From contig JBBQWG010000042.1 of the NCBI GenBank assembly GCA_038210825.1, forward strand, positions 145 through 64,144: 64,000 nucleotides of DNA, written 5' to 3'. The notes below the pieces were generated by a model. It searched no databases. It was not told where the DNA came from and was given only the letters and a program-made list of their open reading frames with translations. The position numbers were made by a program, and so were the translations under genes. Positions 29,841 to 63,527 of this stretch are shown here, in pieces (the first letter of the stretch is position 1; every line of letters starts with the position of its first letter). This stretch comes from Verrucomicrobiales bacterium (GTDB lineage Bacteria > Verrucomicrobiota > Verrucomicrobiia > Verrucomicrobiales > V1-33).

Positions 29841-30022
29841 GGGCCGGGAAGAGTAGATGCCGCTCCTACTGAGCCCAAACCCCATGGCGCGCCCCCCTGC
29901 CATAAAGATCCCGCCACCACGGGGCGGTGCCTTCCGTGCTCTGAAGAACTCAACTCTGGCAACCACGACCGGGCGGCCAGCGGGGAAAGCACAGAGAAGG
30001 TTCGAGCCAAGCTGAGCATGGA

Positions 30023-30307: not shown

Positions 30308-30406
30308 AACGGAGGACGCTGTAAGTAGGCGGAACGACTCAAGCGCTGGCCCCGCTGGGGCGGCACAGCGCGTCGACGGCGGGGTCAATGTTGAAGTTAG
30401 GGAAAA

Positions 30407-30769: not shown

Positions 30770-30820
30770 AGATTTAACAGGGGCACGAACGTTCTGATAT
30801 CCAAACTCATTTGGGGATTC

Positions 30821-30943
30821 ACGCTGCGATAGGCTGCCGGGTGGGGGTCAAGCAGGCGCGGGAGGCCGGCTTCCTCACGGGAAACGGGCAGTCACTGGCC
30901 GGGGCGGAGGCCGCCGAGGATTTTGCGGAGGTCGAGGTCCTTG
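30821..30943. repeat. direct repeat C: functional 3' end (last ~16 codons) plus 71-nt downstream flank of the 30892-31911 gene
   Basis: Partner of repeat D (29708-29840). The best-conserved core is gtcactggccgggRcggaRgccgccgaggatttt. Confidence 0.8.
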
Positions 30944-31911
30944 AATTTTTCGCTGAGTTCCGCGGCTTTGGCGGTGATGTCGCCGCTGTATTGGGTGCCC
31001 TTGGATTTGGCGGTTTCGAGGAGTTTGTGGAACTCGGCCTTCAGGGTGGGGATGTCCATCTGGCGGCCGGAGGCGTAGTAGCGGTCCGCCACGGTGCCGA
31101 GGGCATAGGTGGTGGCAAAGGTGAGGGCGGTGCCGGCCACGCCGCCGGTGAGGCCGCCTGCGGTTTCGCCGGATTTGCCGCCGAGGCCGCCCATGACACC
31201 TGACAGGAGTTTGCGCAGCCCGCCTTCCAGGACCTGGCTCACGGCTCCGATGCCGAGGGCGGCCCCGAAGTCCTTCAGGGAATTGCGGTCGAGGGAGATG
31301 CCGTGGCGTTTGCCGATGTCGTAGACCATCTTCATCTGAGTGGGCACGATGGCGAGGGAGCCGGTGGTTTGCGGCAGCAGCTCCAAGGCGGCGGTGAGGA
31401 TGGCGTATTTCAGCAGCACAGGATCGAGGTCCTCCGCCGGGGCGGCGGGGATCTCCGGCATGTCGTCCGGAAAGACGGGGGTCGCGACGGGCACCACCGC
31501 CGCCGGAGGGACCGTGGCGGTGCCCCGGGAGAGCAGCGCTGCGGCCAGACTGGCGAGAAATTGTTGTTCCTCGGGCACGGCGGGGCCGCTGGCCTCGCAG
31601 ACGGACCTCGCCAGTTCATAGGCCAGGCTTTTGGCTTCGGGGGATTCCAGGGCGGCGGCGGCACTGGCCAGGGTGACCTGTTTGGTGAGGACCTTCTGGC
31701 AGGTCGCCCCGAGGTCTACGGCATCCATCTGGAAGCCTTCGGCGACGCGGCGCACGGCGGCATGCTCGGCTTCCTGTTTACTCTGATCCGCAAAGGCCGC
31801 CAGCAGGGCGACGGCGAGGATGGCTTCTTTTTCCTGGGGTGTCATGGCGGCGGGTGGGGTGGGGGCCGAAGGGCCGGTGGAAGAAAACCTGTAAAGGTGT
31901 CCTGCCATCAA
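30892..31911 (-). CDS. TerB-like N-terminal / DUF697-like C-terminal domain protein
   Basis: N-terminus EKEAILAVALLAAFADQSKQEAEHAAVRRV (TerB-like). C-terminus LLKYAILTAALELLPQTTGSLAIVPTQMKMVYDIGKRHGISLDRNSLKDFGAALG (DUF697-like). An alternative start at 31845 (MTPQEKEAIL) is at least as plausible. Confidence 0.65.
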   Translation of the reverse strand: MMAGHLYRFSSTGPSAPTPPAAMTPQEKEAILAVALLAAFADQSKQEAEHAAVRRVAEGFQMDAVDLGATCQKVLTKQVTLASAAAALESPEAKSLAYELARSVCEASGPAVPEEQQFLASLAAALLSRGTATVPPAAVVPVATPVFPDDMPEIPAAPAEDLDPVLLKYAILTAALELLPQTTGSLAIVPTQMKMVYDIGKRHGISLDRNSLKDFGAALGIGAVSQVLEGGLRKLLSGVMGGLGGKSGETAGGLTGGVAGTALTFATTYALGTVADRYYASGRQMDIPTLKAEFHKLLETAKSKGTQYSGDITAKAAELSEKFKDLDLRKILGGLRPGQ

Positions 31912-34281: not shown

Positions 34282-34407
34282 GCCGGATAGAGGGGGGAGG
34301 AAAAAGAAAGGAAAAATCAGCAGAAGCGGGGATCGCAGGGGCTGGAAGACCCGCAGTATCCCCAGTGGCGAAGAAATCTCAATGAAGAACCGCTGAAGGG
34401 AATCTTG

Positions 34408-39973: not shown

Positions 39974-40346
39974 CAGCGCCAACGGCGCATCCCATGACAG
40001 CCTGGGGTTTCAACCCCAGGAAACCCGGCCCCCCCCGATCCGGAGCGCCATCGGCGCGTTCCATGATGGCGATGTGGATGGCGACGACCAGGCGGGGAAA
40101 TCGGCTTGCTCCGGCCAATCATGAAACGCGCTTTCAGCGCTGGGAAATGGGGAGGGATGATAACCTGGGGTTGAAACCCCAGGCTGTCATGGAATGCGTC
40201 GTTGGCGCTGAAGCGTGTGCATCAAGTGCAACTCGTCTGCCCCCCGAGGCTGTCATGGAATGCGCCGTTGGCGCTGAAGCGTGTGCATCAAGTGCAACTC
40301 GGTCTGCCCCCCGAGGCTGTCATGGAATGCGCCGTTGGCGCTGAAG
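39974..40346. repeat. composite repeat region: 47-bp inverted repeat arms plus 2.5 tandem copies of a 66-67 bp unit
   Basis: Left arm 39974-40020 (cagcgccaacggcgcatcccatgacagCCTGGGGTTTCAACCCCAGG) is the reverse complement of 40164-40210. Tandem units start at 40182, 40248 and 40315 (ggctgtcatggaatgcgYcgttggcgctgaagcgtgtgcatcaagtgcaactcg(g)tctgccccccga). Confidence 0.85.
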
Positions 40347-41099
40347 GGGAACTTGCCGGCGACGCTTCAGCCAGATCCCCAACGGCAGGGCCAGCACCAG
40401 GGCCAGCAGTCCTGCGGTCATCACGGCAAGCCGGCCTCGTCCTCTGATTTCCCGGGAGAGGACCGTACCAGTGGTCAGATCAAAGGTATATAATTCCTGA
40501 TAGCCCAGATCAAGGATCCGATCCCATCCCCGCCACAAGCCCCGCCGTGCCGTGGACAACAGGAGGCGGTCTCCCAACACTTCAAATTCATCATACCATA
40601 CCGAGTGCCAATCAAGACTGGTAAACCTGAAAAAGGGTCCCTGCCGCAGGCCGGTCAACAATTGATGGCGGCTATACTCCCGGATGGGAAGTCCGTCCCG
40701 GTAAAAAGCCAGGGCCCAGGACGCCCGCAAATCAAGAGCCCCGATATTGCGCCGGACGACACTTCTAAAATCGTCCGACCATTTCATATCGTCCTTCTGG
40801 CTGAACCAATCCACCTGCCAGACGGGCTGGAGGGTCACGGCATCATAAACCCCCGATTTCGGGAAAGTCTCATGCAAGGCTATTCTCCTTCCCTCTGGTA
40901 GCGTGAATCTGACCGGCTGCAGGACTTCGCGACTGCTATCCCGGGGCAACATCACCAGAACCTGTCGCCCATCCGCCGTGATCCTCGCATGGGAAACGTC
41001 AACGGAGGTTTTGGCCAGCAAGTTCCCCGTGCCTGCCCACACCAAGAGGAACACCAGACCACACTGGCACCAGTTTGCTGCCGCCAAGGACAGGCTCAT
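40320..41099 (-). CDS. hypothetical exported protein with C-terminal TM anchor (259 aa)
   Basis: N-terminal signal-like WCQCGLVFLLVWAGTGNLLA, C-terminal helix LAVMTAGLLALVLALPLGIWL followed by KRRR. The last 8 codons and the stop (..QRQRRIP*) lie inside the third tandem repeat unit. Confidence 0.6.
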   Translation of the reverse strand: MSLSLAAANWCQCGLVFLLVWAGTGNLLAKTSVDVSHARITADGRQVLVMLPRDSSREVLQPVRFTLPEGRRIALHETFPKSGVYDAVTLQPVWQVDWFSQKDDMKWSDDFRSVVRRNIGALDLRASWALAFYRDGLPIREYSRHQLLTGLRQGPFFRFTSLDWHSVWYDEFEVLGDRLLLSTARRGLWRGWDRILDLGYQELYTFDLTTGTVLSREIRGRGRLAVMTAGLLALVLALPLGIWLKRRRQVPLQRQRRIP

Positions 41100-49431: not shown

Positions 49432-51228
49432 ATGTCCAAAGCCAGCGTCGAAGAAATCAAGCTTGAGTCCCAGGGCCTCCGTGGCGTCATCGCCGAAAAC
49501 TTCGCTGACCCGGCCCTGACGCATGTGGATGATGCGGAAAATGTGCTTCTGAAGTTCCATGGATCCTACCAACAGGACGACCGCGACCTCCGGCCGATTC
49601 TGACCAAAGAGAAAAAGGAAAAGGCCTGGTCCTTCATGGTGCGTTCCAAAATGCCGGGCGGCCGGATTTCGGCCCGGCAGTGGCTGATCCATCACGAGCT
49701 GTGTGTCCTTTCAGAAGGTTCGCTGCGCCTCACGAACCGCCAGGGAATTCAGTTGCACGGTGTGCTGAAGGGCAACCTGAAGGCAGTCATCGCGGGGATT
49801 TGCCGCAGCGGCCTGACCACGATGGGAGCCTGCGGCGATGTGGTGCGCAATACCATGGCCCCGGCGGCTCCGATCAAGGATGCCGCCCGGCTTGATGCCC
49901 AGCTCCTCTCCGAGGAACTCAGCCAGCGTTTCCTCTGGCGCTCCTCCGCCTATGCCGACATCTGGCTCGACGGGGAAAAGATTGATCTCGACTGGGCGCA
50001 GACCGGCGTGAATCCCGAAGTCCGCGCCCGGACCATCGCCAAGGATGAAAAGGCGGCCGAGGACCCGATCTACGGCAAGCTGTATCTCCCCCGCAAATTC
50101 AAGATCGGCATCGCCATCCAGCCGCAGAATGATGTTGATGTTTTCAGTCAGGATCTTGGCTTTGTGCCACACGTCGAGAACGGGGCCGTCGAAGGTTACA
50201 CCATTACCGTGGGCGGCGGGTTCGGCATGAGCCATGGCCAGCTGAATACACGGCCCTTCCTTGCCCAACCCTTGTTTTATGTTAAGCGCCCCCACGCGGT
50301 GGATGCCGCCGAAGCCATCGTCACCACGCAGCGCGACCACGGCAACCGGACCGAGCGCAAACACGCGCGCATGAAATACACGGTGCAGACCATGGGCATC
50401 GACGGGTTCCGGGCGGAAGTGGTGAGCCGCCTGCCCGGCATCAAAACCTTCCCGGCCAAGCCGATTCCCTTCGACACCGTGGAGGACAACCTCGGCTGGC
50501 ACGAGCAGGGCGACGGCAAACTCTTCTGCGCCGTTTACGTCAGTATGGGCCGCATCACCAACCGTGAGGGAGGCCCGCAGTATCTCGACTGCTTCAATGA
50601 AATCGCAAGGGATCTGGAGCTGCCCTTTATTATTACCCCTAACACCAACGTGATCATTGCTGATGTCGCGCCGGAACAAAAAGGTGCGGTCGAAGCCATC
50701 CTCGCCAAATACCACGTCCCGCACGCCGACGCCATGACCGCCACCCGCCGTGTCGCCCACGCGTGTGTGGCGCTGCCTACCTGCGGCCTCAGCTTGTCTG
50801 AATCCGAACGCGCGCTCCCCGGCGTGCTCGATGAATTTGATGGCATTCTGCGCGAACTCGGACTCGAAAACGACCCCATTCTGGTGCGCATGACAGGCTG
50901 CCCGAACGGCTGCGGCCGCCCCTACAATGCCGACTTTGGTTTTGTGGGGCGTGCTCCCAACAAATACGCCCTCTTCGTTGGCGGCAGCATCGCGGGCGAC
51001 CGCCTGGCCGGTCTCGAAATCAAATCCGTGCTACGCGCCGACATCGCGGCCACCGTCCGCCCCTACTTGGAAGCTTACAAAGCGGAACGACTGGCTGGCG
51101 AGACCTTCAGCGCCTGGTTCGGCCGCACCCGCACCACCGGCGAAGCCCCGACCCCGGAACAGTTCCACATTGAACTCACCGAACGCGCCGCCCGGCTCGC
51201 CGGGGAAAAGGTCACCGCAGCCGGCTGA
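49432..51228 (+). CDS. cysI: assimilatory sulfite reductase hemoprotein (siroheme/4Fe-4S)
   Basis: Collinear with E. coli CysI as I recall it: LRGVIAENF, FHGSYQQDDRDLR, LTNRQGIQLHGV, YLPRKFKIGIA, TTQRDHGNRTERKHARMKYT, CVALPTCGLSLSESER, TGCPNGCGRP. Confidence 0.93.
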   Translation: MSKASVEEIKLESQGLRGVIAENFADPALTHVDDAENVLLKFHGSYQQDDRDLRPILTKEKKEKAWSFMVRSKMPGGRISARQWLIHHELCVLSEGSLRLTNRQGIQLHGVLKGNLKAVIAGICRSGLTTMGACGDVVRNTMAPAAPIKDAARLDAQLLSEELSQRFLWRSSAYADIWLDGEKIDLDWAQTGVNPEVRARTIAKDEKAAEDPIYGKLYLPRKFKIGIAIQPQNDVDVFSQDLGFVPHVENGAVEGYTITVGGGFGMSHGQLNTRPFLAQPLFYVKRPHAVDAAEAIVTTQRDHGNRTERKHARMKYTVQTMGIDGFRAEVVSRLPGIKTFPAKPIPFDTVEDNLGWHEQGDGKLFCAVYVSMGRITNREGGPQYLDCFNEIARDLELPFIITPNTNVIIADVAPEQKGAVEAILAKYHVPHADAMTATRRVAHACVALPTCGLSLSESERALPGVLDEFDGILRELGLENDPILVRMTGCPNGCGRPYNADFGFVGRAPNKYALFVGGSIAGDRLAGLEIKSVLRADIAATVRPYLEAYKAERLAGETFSAWFGRTRTTGEAPTPEQFHIELTERAARLAGEKVTAAG

Positions 51229-51253
51229 ACGAGGGCGGCCTTCCTGCGGGAAG
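51160..51253. repeat. direct repeat A: last 22 codons, stop and 25 nt downstream of cysI
   Basis: cagttccacattgaactcaccgaacgcgccgcccggctcgccggggaaaaggtcaccgcagccggctgaacgagggcggccttcctgcgggaag. Partner at 52158-52254. Confidence 0.85.
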
Positions 51254-52036
51254 TTAATTGAGCCGTTTTACCCGGATGTTGCGGTAGCGCACAAATTGCC
51301 GGGTATGGTCGCCGCCGCCATGGACTTGGAGGGCAATGCGGCCTTTGGCGGGATGCCGGACCTCCTTCTCCTGCCACTCCATGATCTTCACGCCATTGAT
51401 CCATGTCGTGATGTTAGGGGGATTGCCTTCAATGCGGGCACGCAGTTCGTTCCACTGGCCGGCACGCCAGAAATACGGCCAGCTGGCCGGTTTGACCGGC
51501 AATGGAGTGGGCGGCTCTCCGGTCTTTTTATCGGTGATCTCCGTCACTTTGTCCGTGAAGCTGTAATTCCTGACATGGGGTTTGCCGCCCAGACCCTCGC
51601 CATAGATCCCCATCAGATTCCCGCCGCTGTGATAATCAATCATGGCCTGCCAGGCCTTGCCGTCCACGGTGCTGCGCAGGAAAAGCCCGCTGTCCGGACC
51701 GAAGTCGTTGTTCATTTCCATCGCCACCTCAAAGTCCCCGAATTCCTCCTTGGTCATCACCAGACCCCCGTTGCCTGGCACATCCTGACTGCCGGTGATG
51801 GCCCCATTCTCCACGACCCAGCGCCCGCCGCTAGTGTGGTTGCTGGTGCGGGAATGCCCGCTTTTGGCACTGACCTCCCACCCTGCAAGGGACTGGCCGT
51901 CAAACACCCGGACAAAACCTTCTTCCAGCCCCGCCTGCGGTCCTTCCGGCACCGGTTTGGTGTCCTGCTGCGCGATGGCGACCACGGCGGCGAGGAAGGA
52001 AAGAAGCAGAAGAGAAACGGAAACGCGGGTTTTCAT
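51254..52036 (-). CDS. DUF1080 domain-containing (3-keto-disaccharide hydrolase-like) secreted protein
   Basis: Signal peptide MKTRVSVSLLLLSFLAAVVAIA; FVRVFDGQSLAGWE; RWVVENGAITG; GRIALQVHGGG...VRYRNIRVKRL. Confidence 0.9.
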   Translation of the reverse strand: MKTRVSVSLLLLSFLAAVVAIAQQDTKPVPEGPQAGLEEGFVRVFDGQSLAGWEVSAKSGHSRTSNHTSGGRWVVENGAITGSQDVPGNGGLVMTKEEFGDFEVAMEMNNDFGPDSGLFLRSTVDGKAWQAMIDYHSGGNLMGIYGEGLGGKPHVRNYSFTDKVTEITDKKTGEPPTPLPVKPASWPYFWRAGQWNELRARIEGNPPNITTWINGVKIMEWQEKEVRHPAKGRIALQVHGGGDHTRQFVRYRNIRVKRLN

Positions 52037-52157
52037 AAGGTCCCTCTACGCTGGCTGCGGTCCGGTATTTCGAACGGGCCATGACTGAATCCCGGCTCCC
52101 TGCCCTTCCGCCCGGTCCGTAATAGGCTAAATTCCACTCCCTCCTCGGACCGCCTTC

Positions 52158-52254
52158 CAGTTCCCACGTTGAATTCACCGAACGCGCCGCCCGCCTCGCC
52201 GCGGGAAAAGGTCAGCGCAGCCGGCTGAACCATGGCGGCTTTCCTGCTGGAAAG
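52158..52254. repeat. direct repeat B: decayed second copy of the cysI 3' end
   Basis: cagttcccacgttgaattcaccgaacgcgccgcccgcctcgccgcgggaaaaggtcagcgcagccggctgaaccatggcggctttcctgctggaaag. My hand alignment to repeat A gives 8 substitutions and 3 single-base indels, and the indels break the cysI frame. Confidence 0.85.
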
Positions 52255-52280
52255 AAAACCGGCAGCCTCTATCGTCAGAC

Positions 52281-52799
52281 GTGCGATCTTTGACTACTGC
52301 CCGGAAAATTCATGATTTCATGGATTCGCTCGGAAAGGCGGTTCCTGCCCCGGGCCGGATCTATGTCACGGGAGGTGTCTCCGCCGTTTTAATGGGATGG
52401 CGGGAAATGACGGTAGATATTGATATCAAAGCCGACCCCGAACCCGCAGGACTTTTTCAAGCTTTACCGGAACTGAAGGAAAAACTGGACATCAATCTCG
52501 AATTGGCTTGTCCTTCAGACTTCATCCCGCCGCTGCCTGGCTGGGAGAGCCGAAGCCTTTTTGTCCAGCGTTGTGGCAAAATCGATTTTTACCACTACGA
52601 TTTCTACAGTCAGGCCCTGTCCAAATTGGAACGTTTCCACTCCCGCGACCAATTTGATATCGCCCACATGCTGGCGGATGCATTGATTGAAAAACCGCGC
52701 CTGAGTTCACTCTTCACCGCCATTCTGCCTGATTTGATTCGTTTCCCCGCCATTGATATTCCCACCTTCACCCAACGGGTAGCCGACTTCACAGGATGA
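52281..52799 (+). CDS. minimal nucleotidyltransferase-fold protein (DUF6036/MNT-like)
   Basis: IYVTGGVSAVLMGWREMTVDIDIKAD fits the Pol-beta NTase signature hG[GS]-x9-13-DhDh. 172 aa from GTG 52281, with ATG 52320 as an alternative. Locally AT-richer. Confidence 0.6.
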   Translation: MRSLTTARKIHDFMDSLGKAVPAPGRIYVTGGVSAVLMGWREMTVDIDIKADPEPAGLFQALPELKEKLDINLELACPSDFIPPLPGWESRSLFVQRCGKIDFYHYDFYSQALSKLERFHSRDQFDIAHMLADALIEKPRLSSLFTAILPDLIRFPAIDIPTFTQRVADFTG

Positions 52800-53125
52800 A
52801 TATACCCAGCCACGATCTGCTCCACAATCTGCCTGGTGCTGACATCGCCGAAGCTGGGTTGGCCGACCTGGCAGCCCATCGGGAAACCGTGGCTTCCCTG
52901 CTTTTGGAGATCGGATCGCCTCGCCTCACCAAGGCCGGTCTGGCCATTCCCCTTCCCATCAAGTCCGGAACAGGGCCGCCGGATGCCGAACTCCGGCTTT
53001 ATGCTTTGCTGGGCCGGGAGCATGGCTCCGCAGCCTACAGTCAGTATGGGGCGTGGATGCGCCGTCTGGGCAAGCTGTGCCGTAGCTTGGAACAGCGCGC
53101 CCGCCTGCGGCCTGCGCCAAATTGA
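52796..53125 (+). CDS. hypothetical protein (109 aa), start/stop-overlapped with the NTase gene
   Basis: Its ATG overlaps the upstream TGA (ATGA at 52796-52799). Probably helical. No HEPN R-x4-6-H motif or other signature was recognised. Confidence 0.5.
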   Translation: MNIPSHDLLHNLPGADIAEAGLADLAAHRETVASLLLEIGSPRLTKAGLAIPLPIKSGTGPPDAELRLYALLGREHGSAAYSQYGAWMRRLGKLCRSLEQRARLRPAPN

Positions 53126-53166
53126 AGCACCCGGTGCAGCCTTTTTCTGAAGGCTTCCCGTCCTCA

Positions 53167-53952
53167 TCACGGCACTGCCAGCACCAGACGAGGCTCCCGG
53201 GCTGGATCGATCCAGGCGAGGATTGTCCTGACATTTTCACGGGAGAGCGCCGTGCAGCCGGCCGTGCCCTCGCCCGGCCCTTTCCAAAGGTGGAGAAAAA
53301 TGCAGGAGCCGCCTCCGGGGACGCGGGCGGGATTGTGGCCGATCATGATGCCGGTTTCGTAGGCGCCGTCGTCCCGCCTCATGATTTCCGCACTGTCCCA
53401 ATCCTTGTCAGGAACTATGGTTTCATCGACTACGAGGTTATAATAGCGCGACTTCACGTCATCCACCCCGCGCAGGGAGGGGGTGCATTCCCGCCATGGG
53501 AGTTTCACCCCGGGTGGTGCGGAAACCGCTGAACCAAAGGCAAAGGGCAGCCGGAAGATGCCCGCCGGGCTGCGCCCGTCCCCCTCTTTTTTGTCAGGAT
53601 AGCCTCCCGGATTCGGCAGATCCGGATCACCGGTGCCCCAGCCCACTCCATTTCGTCCCACCACCGCTTCCATGGGTCCTGCGGCAATTTTCCACTCAGG
53701 GAGCCCGGGGTGCCGCTCCAAAAGCCACACTTGGGCCGCCGGCCCATCCATCCCTGGCGGGCGCACCACCACCAATTGCCCGCACTCTGCCGGAACCGCG
53801 CCGCGCAGCCCGCCCGGGATCAGGCGCTGCCCTTCTCCCGTCTTCCACCACACGACCAGAAAGATTCCCAGCGCGACTGAAATGCCCAGTAAAATCACTT
53901 TGTGAAATCGTTTCACCGGCCCACACCAAACGGCAACACGGCAGGATTGCAC
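53167..53952 (-). CDS. L,D-transpeptidase (YkuD-like) family protein
   Basis: N-terminal anchor FHKVILLGISVALGIFLVVWW. C-terminal SCIFLHLWKGPGEGTAGCTALSRENV resembles the H...G-C active-site region of YkuD-type enzymes. Confidence 0.6.
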   Translation of the reverse strand: MQSCRVAVWCGPVKRFHKVILLGISVALGIFLVVWWKTGEGQRLIPGGLRGAVPAECGQLVVVRPPGMDGPAAQVWLLERHPGLPEWKIAAGPMEAVVGRNGVGWGTGDPDLPNPGGYPDKKEGDGRSPAGIFRLPFAFGSAVSAPPGVKLPWRECTPSLRGVDDVKSRYYNLVVDETIVPDKDWDSAEIMRRDDGAYETGIMIGHNPARVPGGGSCIFLHLWKGPGEGTAGCTALSRENVRTILAWIDPAREPRLVLAVP

Positions 53953-54641: not shown

Positions 54642-54712
54642 GTGCCGTGGCGGGACATTCAGTCAACATACCCAGCTAACCCATCCCTCTTTTCCTCCTC
54701 CTTTCCCTCCCC

Positions 54713-55876
54713 ATGAAGCACTTCCTGCCTCTCCTCGCTGGCGCCACCCTCCTGCTGCCCGCCTGCGAAAAAGCCGTTCCGCCTCCCGCGATGGGCGGGT
54801 TGCCCAATCCCATGCCAGTCATGACCCTGGTGCCGGAAAGCCGGAAAATCAATGATTGGGACGAATTTTCCGCCCGCATTGAAGCCACGGATTCCGTCGA
54901 AATCCGGCCGCGCGTCACCGGGTATATCGAACGGGTCGTTTTTGAAGCGGGCCAGTTGGTGCGGGAAGGCGATGTCTTGTTTGAGATTGATCCCCGGTTC
55001 GAACAAGCCGCGCTGGATGTCGCCGATGCCGCGGTGGCCCAGGCCAAGGCCCGCCTCCTGAGCGCCCAAAGTGAGGCTGACCGTGTGGAATCCCTGCTCA
55101 AGGCCCGGGCCATTTCCCACGAAGAAGCTGACACGAGGCGCAACGCCCTCGCGGTGGCCAAAGCCGCAGTCCAGTCCGCTGAGGCCAGCCGCAACGGGGC
55201 CATCCTGAACATGGAATTCACCAAAGTCAGGTCCCCCATCAATGGCCGCGTCAGCCGCGCCCTCCAAACCAAAGGCAATTACATCAGCGGGGTGGCTGGT
55301 TTCACCACCCTGCTCACCTCCGTCGTCAGTGTGGACCCCATGCATGTCTATGCCTCGATTGATGACGCCACCTACCTCCGCTACTCTAAGTTGATCCGGG
55401 AGAAAAAGCTCGCTGATTCCAATTCCGTGAGGGTGACGGTGGATCTCAAGATCGAAGGTGATACCGGCTGGTCACACAAGGGCTGGATAGAATCCTTTGA
55501 CAACCGCATCGACCCAACCACCGGCAGCATTACGGTGAGGGCCGTTTTCCCCAACGAAGAAGGCATTCTCACTGCCGGATCCTTCGCCCGCATCCGCCTG
55601 CCCGGAAGCGGGGAATATGAAGCCATTCTGATCGATGAAAAATATGTCAGCACCAATCAGGACGTGAAGTTTGTCATGGTCGTCGGCAGCGATGGTGCTT
55701 CCGAAGTCCGGCCTATCCAGCTCGGCCGCAGCCATGACGGCCAGCGCGTGGTCCTCAGTGGCCTCTCCTCTTCCGACAAAGTCATCATCAGCGGTCTGCA
55801 GATGCTCCCTCCCGGCTGGCCCGTGCAGGCTATTGCCCCGCTGCCTGAGGCCCCCAAGCCCATCGCCCGGAACTAA
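54713..55876 (+). CDS. efflux RND transporter periplasmic adaptor subunit (pair 1)
   Basis: Lipobox LLLPAC. Biotinyl-lipoyl/HlyD-like blocks RPRVTGYIERVVFEAGQLVREGDVLFEID and FTKVRSPINGRVS. Confidence 0.9.
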   Translation: MKHFLPLLAGATLLLPACEKAVPPPAMGGLPNPMPVMTLVPESRKINDWDEFSARIEATDSVEIRPRVTGYIERVVFEAGQLVREGDVLFEIDPRFEQAALDVADAAVAQAKARLLSAQSEADRVESLLKARAISHEEADTRRNALAVAKAAVQSAEASRNGAILNMEFTKVRSPINGRVSRALQTKGNYISGVAGFTTLLTSVVSVDPMHVYASIDDATYLRYSKLIREKKLADSNSVRVTVDLKIEGDTGWSHKGWIESFDNRIDPTTGSITVRAVFPNEEGILTAGSFARIRLPGSGEYEAILIDEKYVSTNQDVKFVMVVGSDGASEVRPIQLGRSHDGQRVVLSGLSSSDKVIISGLQMLPPGWPVQAIAPLPEAPKPIARN

Positions 55877-55888
55877 CAGGAGTCCGCC

Positions 55889-58800
55889 GTGAATATCAGT
55901 AATTTCTTTATCACGCGCCCGATTTTCGCAGGGGTGCTGTCCGTGCTGATCACCGTCGTGGGTTTCATTTCCCTGCGGTCTCTGCCCATCAGTGAGTATC
56001 CGGAAATCGTGCCGCCCACCGTGGTGGTCATCGCCGCCTACCCCGGGGCCAGTCCCGACGTCATCGCCACCACCGTCTCCTCGCCGCTGGAGGAAGCCAT
56101 CAATGGCGTGGAAAACAGCCTCTACATGTCCTCCCAGGGCACGGCGGATGGGACCATGACCCTCACCGTCACTTTCAAGCTGGGCACCGACCTCGACAAA
56201 GCCCAGGTGCAGGTGCAAAACCGGGTCAACCAGGCTCTGCCCCGCCTGCCGGAGGAGGTCCGCCGCATCGGCGTCACTGTGAACAAGCAGTCACCGGACC
56301 TGACCATGGTGGTGCATCTCATTTCCACTGGCAACAAATACGACGAAATTTTTGTCAGGAATTATGCCAGCCTTCAAGTCAAGGATGTGCTTGCCCGCAT
56401 TCCTGGCGTCGGCCAGGTCGCCCTTTTCGGCTCGGGCGACTACTCCATGCGCATTTGGCTGGATCCGGAAAAAGCCGCCTCCCGCAACATCACCGCCACC
56501 GATGTGGTGGCGGCCCTGCAGGAACAGAATGCCCAGGTTGCCGCAGGGTCGGTCGGAGCCCCGCCCCTCTCCAATCCCGCCAACCTGACCCTCACCATCA
56601 ACGCCAAAGGAAGACTGGTTTCCGAAGAGGAATTCCAGCGCGTGGTCATCAAGATCGGGGAACAGGGCAATCCGGTTTACCTCCGCGACATTGCCCGCAT
56701 CCAGCTCGGGGCCAGTGACTACGCCCTGCGTTCCCTGCTCAATAACGAGCCCGCCGTCGCCATCCCCATCTTCCAGCTCCCCGGGTCCAACGCCCTCGCC
56801 CTTTCCGCCGCCGTCCGCGCCGCCATGGAGGATCTCTCGCAGGCCTTCCCCGACGGCATCGAATACCGCATTGCCTACGACCCCACGGTCTTCGTCAACA
56901 AGTCCATCGACGCCGTCATTTTCACTTTGCTCGAGGCCGTGATCCTGGTGGTGCTGGTCGTCATCATCTTCTTGCAGACTTGGCGCGCTTCCATCATCCC
57001 GCTGGTGGCGGTGCCCGTCTCCCTGATCGGCACCTTTGCGGTGATGCACGCGCTGGGTTTTTCCATCAATAACCTGTCGCTTTTCGGCCTCGTGCTGGCC
57101 ATCGGAATTGTGGTCGATGACGCCATTGTGGTAGTGGAAAACGTGGAACGGAACATCGGGCTGGGAATGGCACCCCACGCGGCCACGGTGCAGGCCATGA
57201 AGGAGGTCACCGGGCCGATCATCGCCACGGCCCTCGTGCTCTGCGCGGTGTTCGTCCCTACGGCCTTCATCAGCGGCCTGACCGGTCAATTCTACAAGCA
57301 ATTTGCCATCACCATCGCCATCTCCACGGTGATCTCCGCCTTCAATTCCCTGACTTTGTCCCCCGCCCTGAGCGCCATGCTGCTCCAGCCGCACGGCGCG
57401 AAAAAGGATCTGGTCTCGCGTTTTCTAGATGCCATGCTTGGGTGGTTCTTCCGGGCCTTCAACAAATTTTTTGAAGCCTGCGCCCGCCTTTACACTTGGA
57501 TCGTGGGACACCTGCTCCGCTTCAGCGCGGCGGTGATCCTCGTCTATTTCGGGCTGGTCTGGCTCACTGCGTTTATCTTCACCAAAGTCCCGGTGGGATT
57601 CATTCCCGCCCAGGACAAACAATACCTTGTCGCCTTCTGCCAACTGCCGGTCGGCTCCTCCCTCGACCGCACCGAAAAAGTCGTCAACATCATGGGCGAC
57701 CTCGCCCGCCAAACCCCGGGCGTCACCGGCTCCATCGCCTTCCCCGGGCTTTCCATCAACGGTTTCACCACCAGCGCCAACTCCGGGATCGCCTTCATCA
57801 GTCTCGATGAATTTGAAAACCGCAGGACGCCTGAAACCAGCGGACCGGCCATCACCGCCGCACTTCAGGCGAAGCTAAGCATGGCGATCCCCGACGCCAT
57901 CGTTTTTGTCAGTGGACCGCCCGCCGTGCAGGGCCTGGGCTCGCTCGGAGGTTTCCGTCTGCAGATTCAGGACCGGGGCAACCTTGGTTATACCGAACTC
58001 CACCGGGTCACCCAGGAAGTGCTGAATAAAATCCGGATGCAAAGCCAGACCTTCAGTCCGCTCGCCTTTACCAGCTTCGAAGTGAATGTCCCGCAATTGT
58101 TTGCCGACGTCGACAAGGTCAAAGCCAAAGCCCAGGGCGTCAATCTCAAGGAACTGTATGCGACCCTGCAAATCTATCTGGGTTCGCTGTATGTGAACGA
58201 CTTCAACCGCTTTGGCCGCACCTATAAAGTGGTCCTGCAGGCGGACGAACCCTTCCGCCGCACCAAGGACGACATCAGCAAACTCAAAGTCCGCAACGCC
58301 GACGGGGTCATGATTCCCCTTTCTTCCCTCGTGGAGGTCCGGGACTCCTATGGTCCGGACCGCGTAATGCACTACAACGCCTTCCCCACCGCCGAAGTCT
58401 CCGGAGGACCCGCGCCTGGCGTCAGCTCCGGCCAGGCAGAGGAAGCGGTCACCCGGATTCTCAGGGAAACCCTGCCCCGGGGGATGTCCTATGAGTGGAC
58501 TGAACTGAAATATCAGCAGATTCTTGCCGGCAATACCGCCGTTTACATCTATCCGTTATGCCTGCTGCTCGTTTTCCTCGTGCTGGCCGCGCAATACGAA
58601 AGCCTGCGCCTGCCGCTGGCGATCATCCTCATCGTCCCAACCTGTCTGCTCAGCGCCATGCTGGGTGTGTTGCTTGATGGCGGCGATAACAACATTTTCA
58701 CCCAGATCGGCCTGATCGTGCTGGTCGGGCTGGCATGCAAGAACGCCATTTTGATTGTCGAGTTTGCCAGGGAAAAACAGGATCATGGCATGAGCGCCGC

Positions 58801-59074
58801 CGAGGCCGCGCTGGAAGCCTGCCGCTTGCGCCTGCGCCCGATTCTGATGACTTCCATCGCCTTCATCGCCGGCGTTTTTCCGCTGGTCGTCAGCACCGGA
58901 GCCGGCAGCGAAATGCGTCAGGCGATGGGTGTAGCCGTTTTCAGCGGCATGATCGGTGTGACCATCTTCGGCCTCTTCCTGACACCCGTATTTTACTTCC
59001 TCCTCATGAAGTGGGGCGAGGACCGCAAGAAGACCCGGCCGCCCACCGTTCCCTCGCCCGTTCCGGGGCATTGA
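55889..59074 (+). CDS. efflux RND transporter permease (AcrB/MexB-like, pair 1)
   Basis: MNISNFFITRPIFAGVLSVLI. 1061 aa with 12-TM HAE1 architecture and conserved VVDDAIVVVENVER and AKNAILIVEFA blocks. Starts at GTG 55889. Confidence 0.95.
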   Translation: MNISNFFITRPIFAGVLSVLITVVGFISLRSLPISEYPEIVPPTVVVIAAYPGASPDVIATTVSSPLEEAINGVENSLYMSSQGTADGTMTLTVTFKLGTDLDKAQVQVQNRVNQALPRLPEEVRRIGVTVNKQSPDLTMVVHLISTGNKYDEIFVRNYASLQVKDVLARIPGVGQVALFGSGDYSMRIWLDPEKAASRNITATDVVAALQEQNAQVAAGSVGAPPLSNPANLTLTINAKGRLVSEEEFQRVVIKIGEQGNPVYLRDIARIQLGASDYALRSLLNNEPAVAIPIFQLPGSNALALSAAVRAAMEDLSQAFPDGIEYRIAYDPTVFVNKSIDAVIFTLLEAVILVVLVVIIFLQTWRASIIPLVAVPVSLIGTFAVMHALGFSINNLSLFGLVLAIGIVVDDAIVVVENVERNIGLGMAPHAATVQAMKEVTGPIIATALVLCAVFVPTAFISGLTGQFYKQFAITIAISTVISAFNSLTLSPALSAMLLQPHGAKKDLVSRFLDAMLGWFFRAFNKFFEACARLYTWIVGHLLRFSAAVILVYFGLVWLTAFIFTKVPVGFIPAQDKQYLVAFCQLPVGSSLDRTEKVVNIMGDLARQTPGVTGSIAFPGLSINGFTTSANSGIAFISLDEFENRRTPETSGPAITAALQAKLSMAIPDAIVFVSGPPAVQGLGSLGGFRLQIQDRGNLGYTELHRVTQEVLNKIRMQSQTFSPLAFTSFEVNVPQLFADVDKVKAKAQGVNLKELYATLQIYLGSLYVNDFNRFGRTYKVVLQADEPFRRTKDDISKLKVRNADGVMIPLSSLVEVRDSYGPDRVMHYNAFPTAEVSGGPAPGVSSGQAEEAVTRILRETLPRGMSYEWTELKYQQILAGNTAVYIYPLCLLLVFLVLAAQYESLRLPLAIILIVPTCLLSAMLGVLLDGGDNNIFTQIGLIVLVGLACKNAILIVEFAREKQDHGMSAAEAALEACRLRLRPILMTSIAFIAGVFPLVVSTGAGSEMRQAMGVAVFSGMIGVTIFGLFLTPVFYFLLMKWGEDRKKTRPPTVPSPVPGH

Positions 59075-59105: not shown

Positions 59106-60275
59106 ATGTCCGGACGATTTCCCCTGCTTGCCGCGATGATGGCGATGTTCCCCGCCTGCTCTAAAAGCACCAGCGGACCGCCTGCCGCGCCTCCCCCTGC
59201 CAAGGTCACGGTGGCCACTCCTCTGGTGAAAAAGGTGATCGAGTGGGACGAATTCACCGGCCGGTTGGAATCCCCCCAGATGGTCAGCCTGCGGGCCAGG
59301 GTGGGCGGCTATCTGGAAAAGATCCACTTCAAGGAAGGCACCGAAATCAAGGCCGGTGACCTGCTGGTGACCATCGACCCCCGACCCTATCAAGCTGCTG
59401 TGGAGGGTGCCAAAGCGGAACTGGACCGCAGCCGGGCCCATGCCGCCCTCGCCAAAAACGAGGCTGTCCGCGCGGAAACCCTCATCAAGTCCCGCGCCAT
59501 CGCCACGGAGGAATACGATTCCCGCCTGAATGCCGCCGCAGAGGCCGATGCCGCCGTCCGGGTCGCCGAAGCCACCCTGAAAAAGGCCGAACTCAACTTC
59601 GAATTTACCAGCGTGCGCGCACCCATCGGCGGTCGCATCAGCTATGCCCAGGTGACTGAAGGCAATCTCGTCACCGGCGGCGAAAAGGACTCCACCCTGC
59701 TCACCACCATCGTTGCCCTCGATCCATTATACTGCTACTTTGAGGTCAATGAGCAGTCCGCCCTGAAATACCGGGAAATGCACAAGCAGGGTCAACGGGT
59801 CAGTCCCTTGTTCCAGGCTGTGCCCGCCGAAATCGGACTCGCCAACCAGCAGGGTTTTCCCCGCAAGGGAATGGTGGATTTTGTGGACAACGTGCTGCGC
59901 CCCGATACCGGCACCATCCGGGCCCGCGGCACCTTTGCCAATCCTGACAAACTGATGGCACCAGGATTTTTTGCCAGGATCCGCATCCCCGGCTCGGGGG
60001 AATATGAAGCCCTCCTGATCCGCGACGAAGCCATCGGCAGCGACCAGGGCCGGTCCTATGTTTATGTGGTGGGAGATGACCGCAAGGCCGTCTACCGGCC
60101 CATTGAAACCGGCCCTATCGAGGATGGCCTGCGCATTGTGCGCTCCGGATTGAAAGCCGGCGAAAAAATCGTCATCAATGGAGTCATCAACCTGCGGGAC
60201 GGCACTCCCGTCGAGCCCGGGGACGGCCCCATGGCCCTGCCCGCTCCTCCCCAAACGGCCCGGACTGACCGTTAG
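59106..60275 (+). CDS. efflux RND transporter periplasmic adaptor subunit (pair 2)
   Basis: Lipobox MFPAC; LRARVGGYLEKIHFKEGTEIKAGDLLVTID; FTSVRAPIGGRIS. Paralog of 54713-55876. Confidence 0.9.
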   Translation: MSGRFPLLAAMMAMFPACSKSTSGPPAAPPPAKVTVATPLVKKVIEWDEFTGRLESPQMVSLRARVGGYLEKIHFKEGTEIKAGDLLVTIDPRPYQAAVEGAKAELDRSRAHAALAKNEAVRAETLIKSRAIATEEYDSRLNAAAEADAAVRVAEATLKKAELNFEFTSVRAPIGGRISYAQVTEGNLVTGGEKDSTLLTTIVALDPLYCYFEVNEQSALKYREMHKQGQRVSPLFQAVPAEIGLANQQGFPRKGMVDFVDNVLRPDTGTIRARGTFANPDKLMAPGFFARIRIPGSGEYEALLIRDEAIGSDQGRSYVYVVGDDRKAVYRPIETGPIEDGLRIVRSGLKAGEKIVINGVINLRDGTPVEPGDGPMALPAPPQTARTDR

Positions 60276-60356
60276 GACCACCGTACTCCCCGGGCTCTCC
60301 AGTGAGCCGGGCGGCCCGCTGCTCCCGGCCACGGCCTGCCCCCATTCCCCTCCTCC

Positions 60357-63300
60357 ATGAATCTTCCCCGCTTCTTTGTGGACCGCCCGGTATTCGCGGC
60401 GGTGCTGAGCATTGTGATTACCCTGCTGGGTGGTCTGGCCTATTTCACCCTGCCGGTTTCACAGTATCCGGAAGTGATTCCACCTACCGTCGTCGTCAGC
60501 GCCACTTATCCAGGAGCCAATGCCTCCGTGCTGGCAGATACCGTGGCCACCCCATTGGAACAGGAAATCAACGGCGTGGAGGACATGTTGTATCTGTCAT
60601 CCTCCTCAACTTCCGACGGACGCCTGCAGATCACCGTTACCTTTAAACATGGTATTGATCTCGATAAAGCTCAGGTGCTGGTGCAGAACCGCGTCAATGC
60701 TGCCCTGCCCCGTCTGCCGGAGGAAGTGCGACGCATGGGGGTCAGTGCCCTGAAGCGCTCGCCTGACCTCACCATGGCGATTCAATTCTATTCGCCTGAC
60801 GGTTCCCGCGATGTGCTTTACCTTGCCAATTACGTCAACATCCAGGTCCAGAACCGCATCGCGCGGGTCCCCGGCGTGGCCGAAGCCTCGTCCCTCGGCG
60901 GCTTGGATTTCACCATGCGCGTCTGGCTGGATCCGGAAAAGCTGGCGGTGCGTGGCCTGACTGCCACCGATGTGGTGGGAGCCATCCGCGAGCAGAATAT
61001 CCAGGTGGCAGCCGGCCAGTTGGGCCAGCCGCCGGCGCCTTCGGGCCAGCAATTCCAATACACGCTGACCACCCAGGGACGCTTGAAAACTGCAGAGGAG
61101 TTTGACCGCATCGTGCTGCGTACCGGAGCCAGCGGCGATGTGATCCGGCTAAAGGACGTAGCCCGGGTGGAACTGGGCGGCAAGGACTACGCCCAGAAAA
61201 GTTACCGGGATGGAGCCAATGCCATTTCCCTGCGCGTCTTTCAGCTCCCTGGCTCGAATGCCCTTGAGACCGCAGATGCCGTGCGCGCCGAGATGAAACG
61301 CATCGAAGCCCGATTCCCACCCGGGGTGGACTACAGCATCAACTACGATCCTACCCAATTCATCCGTGATTCCATGAAAGCGGTCATGCTTACTCTCGTG
61401 GAAGCCGTCCTGCTGGTGGTGCTGGTGGTGGTAGTCTTTCTGCAGAGCTGGCGCGCCTCCATCATTCCGCTGATCGCAGTGCCGGTTTCCCTCATCGGGA
61501 CCCTCGCGGTGCTGGCCGTCTTCGGCTTCTCACTGAATAACCTTTCCCTCTTTGGCATCGTTTTGGCCATCGGGATTGTGGTGGATGATGCCATCGTGGT
61601 GGTGGAAAATGTGGAACGTTATCTGGAGAAGGGATTTCCCCCCCGGGAAGCCACGATCCGGGCCATGAAGGAAGTGAGTGGCCCTATCATTGCCATCGCG
61701 CTCGTCTTGTGCGCCGTCTTTATTCCCACCGCCTTCCTCAGCGGCATCACCGGCCAGTTTTACAAGCAGTTTGCCATCACCATCGCCGCCTCCACCGTCA
61801 TCTCGGCCATCAATTCCCTGACGCTGTCCCCGGCCCTGGCCGCCCTGCTGCTGAGGCCCCACGGTGCCAAACCAGACTGGTTTTCCCGGATCATCAATGC
61901 CGTGCTGGGATGGTTCTTCCGGCTCTTCAACAAATCCTTCGACGCCCTGTCCCGCGTTTATGCCAAGAGCATTGCCAAAATCATCCGTCATGCCGTGATG
62001 GCGCTCGTGCTCTACGGCGGCCTGATCGGACTGGCCTTTTATGCCTTCAAAAAAGTTCCCACCGGCTTCATTCCCCAACAGGACATGGGTTATTTCATGA
62101 CCGTGATCCAGCTTCCGGACGGAGCCAGTTTTGAACGCACGGATGCCATTGTGAGGCAGGTGGATGCCATGGCCCGGGACACGCCCGGCATCGCCCACAC
62201 CTTCGCGATTTCCGGTTATTCCAACGTCCTCCAGGCCAATCAGAGCAACCTCGGGGCCTGCTTCATGATTCCCGCCCCATTCGATCAGCGCAAGGATCCT
62301 TCCCTGCACGCCAATGCGCTGATGGCGACGCTGCGGAACAAGTTCGCCGGCATCAAGGAAGCCCGCGTCCTGGTGCTGCCCCCGCCGCCGCTGCGCGGCC
62401 TCGGCAATGCCGGGGGATTCAAACTTCAGGTGGAGGACCTCAACAATGCCGGTCTGCCCGCCCTCGAAGCGGCCACCCGCCGTTTCGTGGATGCCATCGC
62501 TGCCGAGCCAGGCTTCAACTCCATCATCACCGGCTTCCGCGCCAACAATCCGCAATACAATCTGGTGATCGACCGCGAGAGGGCCAAGACCATGGGGGTT
62601 CCCATTACTTCGATCAACGAAACCTTGTCCACCTTTCTGGGGTCCACCTACGTGAATGACTTCAATCTCTTCGGCCGCACCTGGCAGGTCATGGCCATGG
62701 CTGAACCGGACTACCGCATGAAACCGGAAGATGTCGGCCGCCTCCATACCCGCAACAACAAAGGCGATATGGTGCCTCTGGGCGCGCTCGTGAAAACGGA
62801 AAAGATCGGCGGCGCGGACCGGGTGCAGCGGTATAACATGTTCGTCTCCGCCGACATCAGCGGCAATACCGACGCCGCCATCAGCTCCGGGGACATGATC
62901 CGGCGCGTCTCCGAAATTGCCAAAACCGCCCTGCCCGGCGGCTTTGACTACGAGTGGACCGATTTGACCTACCAGCAAATTCTCGCCGGCAATTCCATCG
63001 CCTACATCTTCCCGCTGTGTATTCTATTCGTCTTTCTTGTGCTGGCCGCCCAGTATGAAAGCTGGTCCCTGCCCCTCGCCGTCATTCTCATCGTGCCCAT
63101 GTGCCTGCTCAGCGCCATCGGCGGGGTCTGGCTCAGCGGCCAGGACAATAACATTTTCACCCAGATCGGGCTGGTGGTGCTGATCGGCCTCGCTGCCAAG
63201 AACGCCATTCTCATCGTCGAGTTCGCCCGCCAGCAGCAGGACGAGGGCATGGACCGCTTCTCCGCTGCCGTGGAGGCCTGCCGCCTCCGCCTGCGCCCCA

Positions 63301-63527
63301 TCCTCATGACCAGCTTCGCCTTCATCCTCGGCGTGCTCCCCCTCGTCCTCGCCGACGGAGCCGGCGCAGAAATGCGCAACGCCCTCGGCACCGCCGTCTT
63401 CTACGGCATGATCGGCGTCACCTTCTTCGGACTCATCTTCACCCCGGTATTCTACATCGTCCTGCGGAGGGACCGGCCCAAAAACTCTTCCACCGCTCCG
63501 CCCCCGCAGGCCGAGCCCCTCACTTGA
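60357..63527 (+). CDS. efflux RND transporter permease (AcrB/MexB-like, pair 2)
   Basis: MNLPRFFVDRPVFAAVLSIVI. 1056 aa, collinear paralog of 55889-59074. Confidence 0.95.
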   Translation: MNLPRFFVDRPVFAAVLSIVITLLGGLAYFTLPVSQYPEVIPPTVVVSATYPGANASVLADTVATPLEQEINGVEDMLYLSSSSTSDGRLQITVTFKHGIDLDKAQVLVQNRVNAALPRLPEEVRRMGVSALKRSPDLTMAIQFYSPDGSRDVLYLANYVNIQVQNRIARVPGVAEASSLGGLDFTMRVWLDPEKLAVRGLTATDVVGAIREQNIQVAAGQLGQPPAPSGQQFQYTLTTQGRLKTAEEFDRIVLRTGASGDVIRLKDVARVELGGKDYAQKSYRDGANAISLRVFQLPGSNALETADAVRAEMKRIEARFPPGVDYSINYDPTQFIRDSMKAVMLTLVEAVLLVVLVVVVFLQSWRASIIPLIAVPVSLIGTLAVLAVFGFSLNNLSLFGIVLAIGIVVDDAIVVVENVERYLEKGFPPREATIRAMKEVSGPIIAIALVLCAVFIPTAFLSGITGQFYKQFAITIAASTVISAINSLTLSPALAALLLRPHGAKPDWFSRIINAVLGWFFRLFNKSFDALSRVYAKSIAKIIRHAVMALVLYGGLIGLAFYAFKKVPTGFIPQQDMGYFMTVIQLPDGASFERTDAIVRQVDAMARDTPGIAHTFAISGYSNVLQANQSNLGACFMIPAPFDQRKDPSLHANALMATLRNKFAGIKEARVLVLPPPPLRGLGNAGGFKLQVEDLNNAGLPALEAATRRFVDAIAAEPGFNSIITGFRANNPQYNLVIDRERAKTMGVPITSINETLSTFLGSTYVNDFNLFGRTWQVMAMAEPDYRMKPEDVGRLHTRNNKGDMVPLGALVKTEKIGGADRVQRYNMFVSADISGNTDAAISSGDMIRRVSEIAKTALPGGFDYEWTDLTYQQILAGNSIAYIFPLCILFVFLVLAAQYESWSLPLAVILIVPMCLLSAIGGVWLSGQDNNIFTQIGLVVLIGLAAKNAILIVEFARQQQDEGMDRFSAAVEACRLRLRPILMTSFAFILGVLPLVLADGAGAEMRNALGTAVFYGMIGVTFFGLIFTPVFYIVLRRDRPKNSSTAPPPQAEPLT

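Follow-up and report, generated by a model that had tools for sequence, protein, structure and literature searches.

The window, a 64,000-nt stretch of DNA from a Verrucomicrobiales bacterium (an uncultured freshwater representative of the family Verrucomicrobiaceae) that takes up nearly all of a 64,245-bp contig of a metagenome-assembled genome (MAG), contains the end of the cysI gene twice, once in its place as repeat A and once, beyond a convergent DUF1080 gene, as an orphan copy termed repeat B. Repeat B is most likely a recombination scar joining two versions of the variable slot between cysI and the neighbouring ykuD gene, and not the trace of a new kind of mobile element. Somewhat better than even confidence is placed in the fuller proposal, that the recombination was additive and followed the known pattern in which the 3′ end of a gene is displaced downstream. 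The cysI case is thus presented as one more example of a scar type already described, and the evidence from the repeats themselves, from the corresponding loci of relatives (identified by locus numbers, such as L002, where they need to be told apart), from a second locus in the window and from a parallel in Prosthecobacter is laid out below, together with the explanations that compete with it.

The cysI gene (49432-51228, + strand) encodes a sulfite/nitrite reductase haemoprotein and is intact, with Pfam matches to NIR_SIR (7e-42) and NIR_SIR_ferr (8e-19); its amino acid identity to the products of 80 verrucomicrobial loci is 73-93 %. Repeat A (51160-51252, +) is the functional 3′ end of this gene, consisting of the last 22 codons, the TGA at 51226-51228 and 24-25 nt past it, while repeat B (52158-52260, +) is an orphan, frameshifted copy of that end plus its 3′ flank. 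A preliminary description of this DNA had proposed direct repeats of about 95 bp, and alignment bears this out: in a blastn comparison across the whole window, A (51160-51252, 93 nt) and B (52158-52252, 95 nt) are 89.5 % identical on the same strand (E=5e-30). They differ by eight mismatches and two single-base indels, and the third indel counted previously appears if the alignment is extended by one base (51253/52254). Two one-base insertions break the cysI frame in B, as had also been claimed. Mismatches and indels are evenly spread, the longest stretch of identity, 19 nt, falling midway through the coding part, and the four substitutions within that part comprise one synonymous and three non-synonymous changes. 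Homology between B and cysI starts 69 nt before the stop codon, with none detected farther upstream, and no promoter-like site was found in B. The coordinates further confirm that only the DUF1080 gene (51254-52036, − strand) and 121 nt upstream of it lie between the repeats, and that the DUF1080 stop codon (complement TTA, 51254-51256) directly abuts repeat A.

Past the stop codon, B reads ...GGAAAGAAAACC and so matches the cysI 3′ flank of L002 and L004 (...GGAGCAAAACC); its final bases, 52253-52260 (AGAAAACC), prolong an ancestral post-stop sequence that is absent from A. The flank of A is, by alignment, 23 nt shorter than that of B and of L002/L004, and leads straight into the DUF1080 stop codon. 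The alignment therefore identifies B as derived from a true cysI end together with the ancestral sequence beyond it, for the continuation into that flank points to a real gene end as the template and away from an element-borne motif. Within the repeat columns, identity is 87-89 % between A and B, as against 67-81 % between A and the orthologues and 60-75 % between B and the orthologues. Since A and B are so much closer to one another than A is to its orthologues, the duplication must have occurred long after cysI and DUF1080 became adjacent, and since B is nearest to the window's own A, the event took place within this lineage or in close relatives, once they had separated from L001-L005. In cysI itself, L001 lies about as far from the window as L002-L004 do, and a sliding-window comparison with L001-L005 revealed no recombination breakpoint in the gene.

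The DUF1080 gene, a member of the 3-keto-disaccharide hydrolase family (Pfam PF06439, 5e-29), had been taken for the cargo of a single-gene cassette, a reading that does not survive comparison with relatives. Three related species whose cysI products are 90-91 % identical in amino acid sequence to that of the window (L002, L003 and L004) have a convergent DUF1080 gene (85 % amino acid identity) after cysI, in the same position and orientation and with no repeat. In L002 and L004, DUF1080 is followed by the genes for YkuD, TetR, a membrane-fusion protein and an RND pump, which is the order seen in the window, and in L003 YkuD is missing between DUF1080 and TetR. The GC content at third codon positions (GC3) of DUF1080 is 0.74, within the 0.68-0.82 of native genes, and its synonymous divergence (dS) from L002-L004 is 1.3-1.5, compared with 0.8-0.9 for cysI, 1.0-1.2 for YkuD and TetR, and 0.86-0.93 for the RND pump. 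Synteny, native composition and old divergence together contradict a foreign single-gene cassette and mark DUF1080 as ordinary chromosomal DNA. The comparison with relatives suggested in the preliminary description likewise went against a cassette: a second cysI tail was present in 0 of the 76 relatives' cysI loci that could be tested, L002, L003 and L004 included, and among the loci compared no relative had cysI followed by the sequence that lies after B. Elsewhere the flanks of cysI are prone to rearrangement among relatives (L001, L003 and L005); L001 and L005 carry unrelated DNA after cysI, and the upstream adjacency of queG and cysI is common to the window and L005 only.

What distinguishes the window from L002 and L004 lies on the other side of DUF1080. 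Nucleotide homology to these two relatives runs from cysI through DUF1080, breaks off, and resumes at the stop codon of the gene for the YkuD-type L,D-transpeptidase (53167-53952, −; Pfam YkuD), the conserved right-hand flank of the slot. From the DUF1080 start to the YkuD stop there are 64 nt in L002/L004 and 1,130 nt in the window. The region immediately upstream of DUF1080 (52037-52103) is the positional homologue of the whole DUF1080-YkuD spacer of L002/L004; it is collinear with L004 12642-12692, both lying 9 nt from the DUF1080 start, and 7 of 300 shuffles aligned equally well, which is modest support. The excess is thus about 1.06 kb (52104-53160) and consists, in order, of 54 nt, repeat B, 67 nt and a pair of genes that overlap. 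The 54-nt piece (52104-52157) has no detectable relative, in that comparisons with cysI, with the end of YkuD (3′), with the rest of the window and with 172 loci all gave no match, and it is possibly filler at an illegitimate junction.

The two overlapping genes form a module of their own. The first (52320-52799, +) encodes a DUF6036 protein of the nucleotidyltransferase fold (Pfam PF19502, 9e-8) and has a GC content of 0.52 and a GC3 of 0.55; the start of the second, a 109-aa partner open reading frame (ORF; 52796-53125, +) to which no family was assigned, overlaps its end. Homologues of DUF6036 occur at 60-74 % identity in unrelated gene neighbourhoods, and in L161-L167 a homologue of the partner (47-55 % amino acid identity) follows DUF6036. 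In L161 the module sits between genes of the MFS and isocitrate dehydrogenase families, in L162 it sits inside a PSD1-DUF1501 pair, in L163-L167 it lies 3′ of a formyltransferase gene, and it is also found on Leptolyngbya megaplasmids, where DUF6036 has 52 % amino acid identity. Judged by these scattered contexts, DUF6036 and its partner are a horizontally mobile two-gene unit. The pair, which has no match in PADLOC, NCBIfam or PDB sequences, may be toxin-antitoxin-like. Instances of the module are homologous from the DUF6036 start codon onwards, which places B outside the module, as flank that hitch-hiked with it. A direct-repeat search found no gene-tail copies around other DUF6036 modules, and nothing significant emerged from a search for DUF1080 remnants around the window's module or for a second copy of the spacer beyond B. 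The only direct repeat that this search revealed, a 36-nt pair on either side of the module in L163 (5985-6020 and 6910-6945, 89 % identity), resembles repetitive extragenic palindromes, with the palindrome GCCCGCTTGCGGGC.

The order of these parts can be obtained from a single event. The slot would have had two alternative occupants in this lineage or its close relatives, namely DUF1080, as in L002/L004, and the DUF6036 module placed directly after cysI. A cysI-DUF1080-ykuD allele broken at the end of its spacer would have been joined to a cysI-module-ykuD allele at a point 69 nt before the cysI stop codon, through one illegitimate join and one homologous exchange in a shared flank, either cysI or ykuD, which would be a case of homology-facilitated illegitimate recombination. 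Both occupants would thereby have been kept, with a truncated cysI tail and its 3′ flank left between DUF1080 and the module, and the resulting order would be cysI-A-DUF1080-spacer-(54 nt)-B-module-ykuD. Later decay could account for the two frameshifts in the orphan and the loss of 23 nt of flank from the functional copy. Being short and diverged, the repeats would presumably be poor substrates for deletion and might persist for that reason, and an addictive module would be expected to penalise plain replacement and so to favour stacking. The repeat, the synteny, the composition, the relative ages and the mobility of the module are observed; the cysI-module allele, the one-sided character of the exchange and the module's role in stacking are what we infer. 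Among the relatives, a DUF1080-only allele is seen in L002/L004, YkuD is missing from L003 and other DNA follows cysI in L001/L005, and the only full allelic series found is that of the AstE slot described below.

A second locus in the window has the same architecture and may be a further product of this process. The preliminary description had noticed a duplicated 3′ end at a gene it called DUF697-like; the duplication is real (E=6e-23), and the gene, which is intact (30892-31911, −), is TerB/DUF533-like. Repeat D (30833-30943, −) comprises the functional 3′ end of this gene and 59 nt of flank and lacks 10 nt that are present in C and in relatives, while repeat C (29720-29840, −) is the orphan 3′ end, with its frame and stop codon intact. 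The two are 76.9 % identical over 121 columns, the 10-nt gap included. Homology of C to the TerB-like gene starts 51 nt before the stop codon, with none farther upstream, and the seven coding substitutions between D and C fall 4/1/2 at the three codon positions. The orphan retains an ancestral flank, GACACGGCCTT, which is also present in L172 (89 % amino acid identity) and L168 (84 %), and it is here that D lost its 10 nt. Between the repeats (29841-30832, −) lie small hypothetical ORFs (30407-30769 and 30023-30388) of foreign-like composition, without assignment in Pfam, NCBIfam, PADLOC or PDB; the GC content of the segment is 0.56 and the GC3 of the ORF termed orf120 is 0.52. The locus as a whole sits in a 3.6-kb stretch of low GC content (0.54-0.56) with small ORFs and, distal to C, a toxin-antitoxin pair (28436-28908, −) made up of a 70-aa antitoxin (28696-28908; Unstab_antitox, PF09720, 7e-6) and an 86-aa toxin-like ORF (28436-28696). 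In L168 an Unstab_antitox toxin-antitoxin pair directly follows the TerB-like gene, and it is not orthologous to that of the window. A scan of the whole 64 kb showed A/B and C/D to be the only two gene-tail duplications, and a search for traces of accretion found no third copy of either repeat.

A view of how such orphans may arise comes from a repeat scan of about 2.3 Mb of loci, mostly from related bacteria and sampled around a conserved gene. In a Prosthecobacter MAG (L053), an AstE/AspA-like gene has a second copy of its final 133 nt lying 2.8 kb downstream (1146-1279 and 3922-4057), past a three-gene, 2.6-kb ABC transporter operon, and the orphan is followed by an HNH endonuclease gene; a second Prosthecobacter MAG (L075) has tail repeats of the same gene at about 539-674 and 3353-3436. 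The L053 orphan keeps its stop codon and has 28 differences from the functional copy, 19 of them at third positions, with 17 synonymous and 7 non-synonymous codon changes. It is 87.6 % identical to the functional AstE end of L032 and 82.1 % identical to that of its own genome. The slot between the AstE and aminotransferase genes forms an allelic series, being empty in L042 and L045, filled with an insert of about 0.9 kb in L032, L047, L065 and L066, filled with the ABC operon alone in L054 and L070, and stacked, with the ABC operon, the orphan AstE 3′ end and other DNA, in L053 and L075. The series indicates that orphan tails arise in Verrucomicrobiaceae at polymorphic slots by the joining of separately evolved alleles, and the locus would be another product of the process proposed for cysI. 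Similarity of the flanking genes gave no resolution of the polarity of events at the AstE locus.

Which allele was resident at the cysI slot makes no difference to the product, which is identical whether the DUF1080 or the module allele received the other. That the distal copy keeps the ancestral flank at both cysI and TerB-like loci (2/2, p=0.25) weakly suggests that the proximal copy was the incoming one, in which case DUF1080 would have been re-acquired from a close relative and would still be ordinary chromosomal DNA.

Several observations weigh against a join of two slot alleles. In no genome searched is cysI directly followed by the DUF6036 module, which makes the donor allele hypothetical, and no relative closer than about 84 % at the nucleotide level turned up in any collection searched; a metagenome scan with the C-terminal half of CysI gave nothing closer than 76 % amino acid identity, and the 90 % clusters of the window proteins P0001, P0121 and P0241 each contain one member only. 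Neither allele accommodates the 54 nt at 52104-52157. The four coding substitutions between A and B are not biased towards synonymous change (1/4), so that duplication within the genome followed by neutral decay is equally compatible with them. A gene with a TfoX_C domain is a mere hint of natural transformation. The density of cases, two in 64 kb as against one or two in 2.24 Mb of mostly related loci, is higher than a rare illegitimate event suggests, although the sampling of those loci centred on a conserved gene. The flank deletion carried by the functional copy at both loci in the window is, like the 54 nt, a feature that allele stacking does not explain.

The alternative that fares best, and still an unlikely one, is a local tandem duplication of a unit of about 1 kb, running from the cysI 3′ end through its flank and DUF1080 to the spacer, in which the second DUF1080 was later replaced by the DUF6036 module and B is the remnant. 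Such a history would make A and B each other's closest relatives, as they are, and would suit the neutral look of the substitutions in B (3/4 non-synonymous) and its two frameshifts; the unit of 998 nt is also about as long as the distance from B to the YkuD stop, roughly 1009 nt, and the ancestral flank that would precede DUF1080 is present in B. It needs three events, however, a duplication, the arrival of the module and a precise loss of the second DUF1080 with its spacer, and of that second DUF1080 or spacer no trace is left beyond B or after the module. The 54-nt filler would go unexplained, and the L053 orphan, which is nearer to the allele of another genome, is not something that local duplication could produce.

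Nearest to the reading of the preliminary description is an enzyme-less, site-specific element, akin to a cis-mobilizable element (CIME) or of an unknown sort, in which A and B are the attachment sites attL and attR, DUF1080 is cargo and the recombinase is encoded elsewhere. The geometry is indeed that of 3′-end elements and CIMEs, with an intact proximal and a displaced distal gene-end repeat (PMC5704250); the distal copy keeps the ancestral flank at both loci, as if it were the original gene end, and two cases fall within one 64-kb window. The supposed cargo, however, is an ancestral syntenic neighbour of native composition and old divergence, the relatives that share it have no att-like repeat, and its upstream spacer is homologous to a chromosomal spacer in those relatives. 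Nor is there a common core: A and B contain no identical core flanked by diverged arms, and no third copy or recombinase was found in the window. A transposon or insertion sequence does not fit either, as the segments have no inverted repeats at their boundaries and duplications of 95-121 nt at 77-89 % identity are not target-site duplications. In neither orientation do the A/B and C/D families resemble each other significantly (153-841 of 1000 shuffles do at least as well; in the best case, a local alignment in a different register, 22 of 1000 do), which argues against one enzyme shared by the two loci. The motif said to unite all four repeat copies, a GGC-rich run before a TTCC-N-GGAA palindrome, is within chance, with four matches against 1.6 expected and thus no enrichment, and the hairpins after the stop codons are weak and no better than those of shuffled sequence. 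Altogether a site-specific element is quite improbable. As for the three mechanisms left side by side in the preliminary description, homology-driven capture comes close to the best explanation, and the element-borne and site-specific options are improbable.

The related statement that the window lacks any mobile enzyme holds in one respect and fails in another. No integrase, transposase, tyrosine or serine recombinase, relaxase or IntI is present among the window's called genes, the boundaries of the segments at both loci have no inverted repeats, and neither locus has a tRNA target. The window does contain an apparently complete group II intron (about 34406-36303, −), and with it a reverse transcriptase (RT). 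Its domains V-VI match the Rfam family Intron_gpII at 34410-34487 (54.7 bits), weak matches to D1-D4 lie at 35882-35966 and 36062-36215, and GTGCG occurs at about 36303; the intron ORF (34491-35855, 454 aa) has RVT_1 (3e-38) and GIIM (7e-17) domains and no endonuclease domain. The intron lies about 150 nt past a terminator-like hairpin downstream of hupE, its RT being 3.5 kb from the TerB-like locus, and nothing ties it to the repeats.

With at least four orphan-tail products seen, two in the window plus L053 and L075, a process in Verrucomicrobiaceae could be imagined in which an unrecognised enzyme acting in trans adds 1-3 kb directly behind the stop codon or terminator of a conserved gene and in doing so copies about 50-130 nt of its tail. 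Such a process, which might be assisted by a nuclease or an RT given the HNH gene that abuts the L053 orphan and the intron RT of the window, is as doubtful as the site-specific element; were it real, orphan tails would mark a targeted mechanism and not rare illegitimate recombination. An uncharacterised mechanism, as first postulated, is not needed to explain the repeats, for the known displacement of 3′ ends (PMC5361080) fits them and the AstE allelic series shows the pattern arising.

It is very unlikely that the structure is an assembly chimera, in which a DUF1080 strain and a module strain that occurred together were concatenated by the assembler. The source is a metagenome-assembled contig and the structure is exactly what concatenation of two alleles in series would give; set against this, A and B share no identical run longer than 19 nt, not enough to connect graph paths with the usual k-mer sizes, the two frameshifts in B mean that it is not the working allele of another strain, the 54 nt before the junction belong to neither allele, and the architecture recurs at the TerB-like locus and in independent assemblies (L053 and L075). 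Scarcely credible is capture by reverse transcription, with B and C as 5′-truncated cDNAs of the 3′ ends of cysI and TerB-like mRNAs made by the group II intron RT and taken up as filler in break repair: the window has an apparently intact RT/maturase and both orphans run from the coding interior to just past the post-stop hairpin, as 5′-truncated copies of transcript ends would, yet both derive from the adjacent gene in the same orientation, which is very unlikely for random cDNA, the L053 orphan is closest to the allele of another genome, and no in vivo bacterial precedent is known.

If allele stacking is the right explanation, the cysI locus is a clean natural example of how slots beside housekeeping genes grow by addition instead of replacement, each addition leaving behind an orphan gene tail that can be dated. 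Genome-wide surveys could use these orphans as markers of one-sided recombination, which has been measured in the laboratory and rarely documented in wild genomes, and could also ask whether stacking is the favoured outcome of recombination where modules are addictive and toxin-antitoxin-like. For the function of cysI or DUF1080 the consequences are slight, beyond removing the suggestion that DUF1080 is a mobile cassette.

Some further features of the window bear on its annotation. The ORF annotated as 'AMP-binding' (32125-34794, −; 889 aa) is over-extended into the group II intron, and its real start is probably the ATG at 34281, past the 3′ end of the intron. Three tandem units of 66-67 nt (40177-40368 and 39975-40020; 97 % and 69 % identity to the first copy) lie just upstream of, or overlap, the 5′ end of an ORF at 40320-41099 (−), and about 160 nt from them on the minus strand is a match to the Acido-Lenti-1 small RNA (39.5 bits, gathering score 37). 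One gene within positions 1-26235 has a TfoX_C domain (2e-14) of the kind found in competence regulators. The 228-aa ORF at 54659-55345 (−) is spurious, since against L002-L004 its 'third' positions are conserved and its non-synonymous divergence (dN) exceeds dS; the real gene, at 54713-55876 (+), encodes an HlyD-type membrane-fusion protein upstream of an RND pump. It belongs to the first of two tandem paralogous pairs of membrane-fusion protein and AcrB-type RND pump (54713-59074 and 59106-63527), which are 72-77 % identical in nucleotide sequence over long stretches at a spacing of about 4,468 nt.

Among known systems that produce direct repeats or displaced gene ends, integron cassettes do not match, as there is no IntI, the hairpins do not surpass shuffles and the repeats are direct copies of gene ends. 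Merodiploidy, that is, tandem duplication by transformation with self DNA (Johnston et al. 2013, PMC3784515), shares with the window the outcome of direct duplications bracketing chromosomal genes, there by out-of-register homologous recombination; its duplications, in contrast, lie between long pre-existing repeats, are large and unstable, and are not described as fixed 95-nt orphans. CIMEs and tandem accretion at the 3′ end of a target gene (reviewed by Guedon et al. 2017, PMC5704250) likewise displace older material outward. CIMEs, however, derive from elements with tyrosine or serine recombinases and have att sites with a common core, whereas the cysI repeat comes without core, recombinase or foreign cargo.

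Closer in mechanism is homology-facilitated illegitimate recombination, known from natural transformation (de Vries & Wackernagel 2002; Prudhomme et al. 2002; Meier & Wackernagel 2003, all as cited in PMC5361080) and from conjugation in Escherichia coli (PMC3240628). There, a one-sided homologous anchor and an illegitimate join add DNA without any mobile-element enzyme, and the process would give a junction with unrelated filler. It differs from the present case in being experimental and usually reported with deletion of recipient DNA, and duplication of part of the anchor region is something we infer. Closest in form is the displacement of orphan 3′ ends at Rhs, contact-dependent inhibition (CDI) and type VI secretion system (T6SS) effector-immunity loci, which has been ascribed to this recombination (Kirchberger et al. 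2017, PMC5361080, where Jackson et al. 2009 is cited for rhs). At those loci the displaced ends specify variable toxin domains accompanied by cognate immunity genes, and they are retained through selection for immunity; the window and AstE genes are instead housekeeping in kind (cysI, TerB-like and AstE-like), their tails are not polymorphic toxins, and the DNA retained with them is a toxin-antitoxin-like module or small ORFs. In the T6SS/Rhs cases, conserved upstream sequence is proposed to supply the homologous anchor, the opposite end being joined illegitimately, and an intact proximal 3′ end is followed downstream by an orphan in the same orientation with no integrase at hand. Repeats A/B and D/C both show this arrangement, an intact proximal end and, downstream on the same strand, a 5′-truncated orphan.

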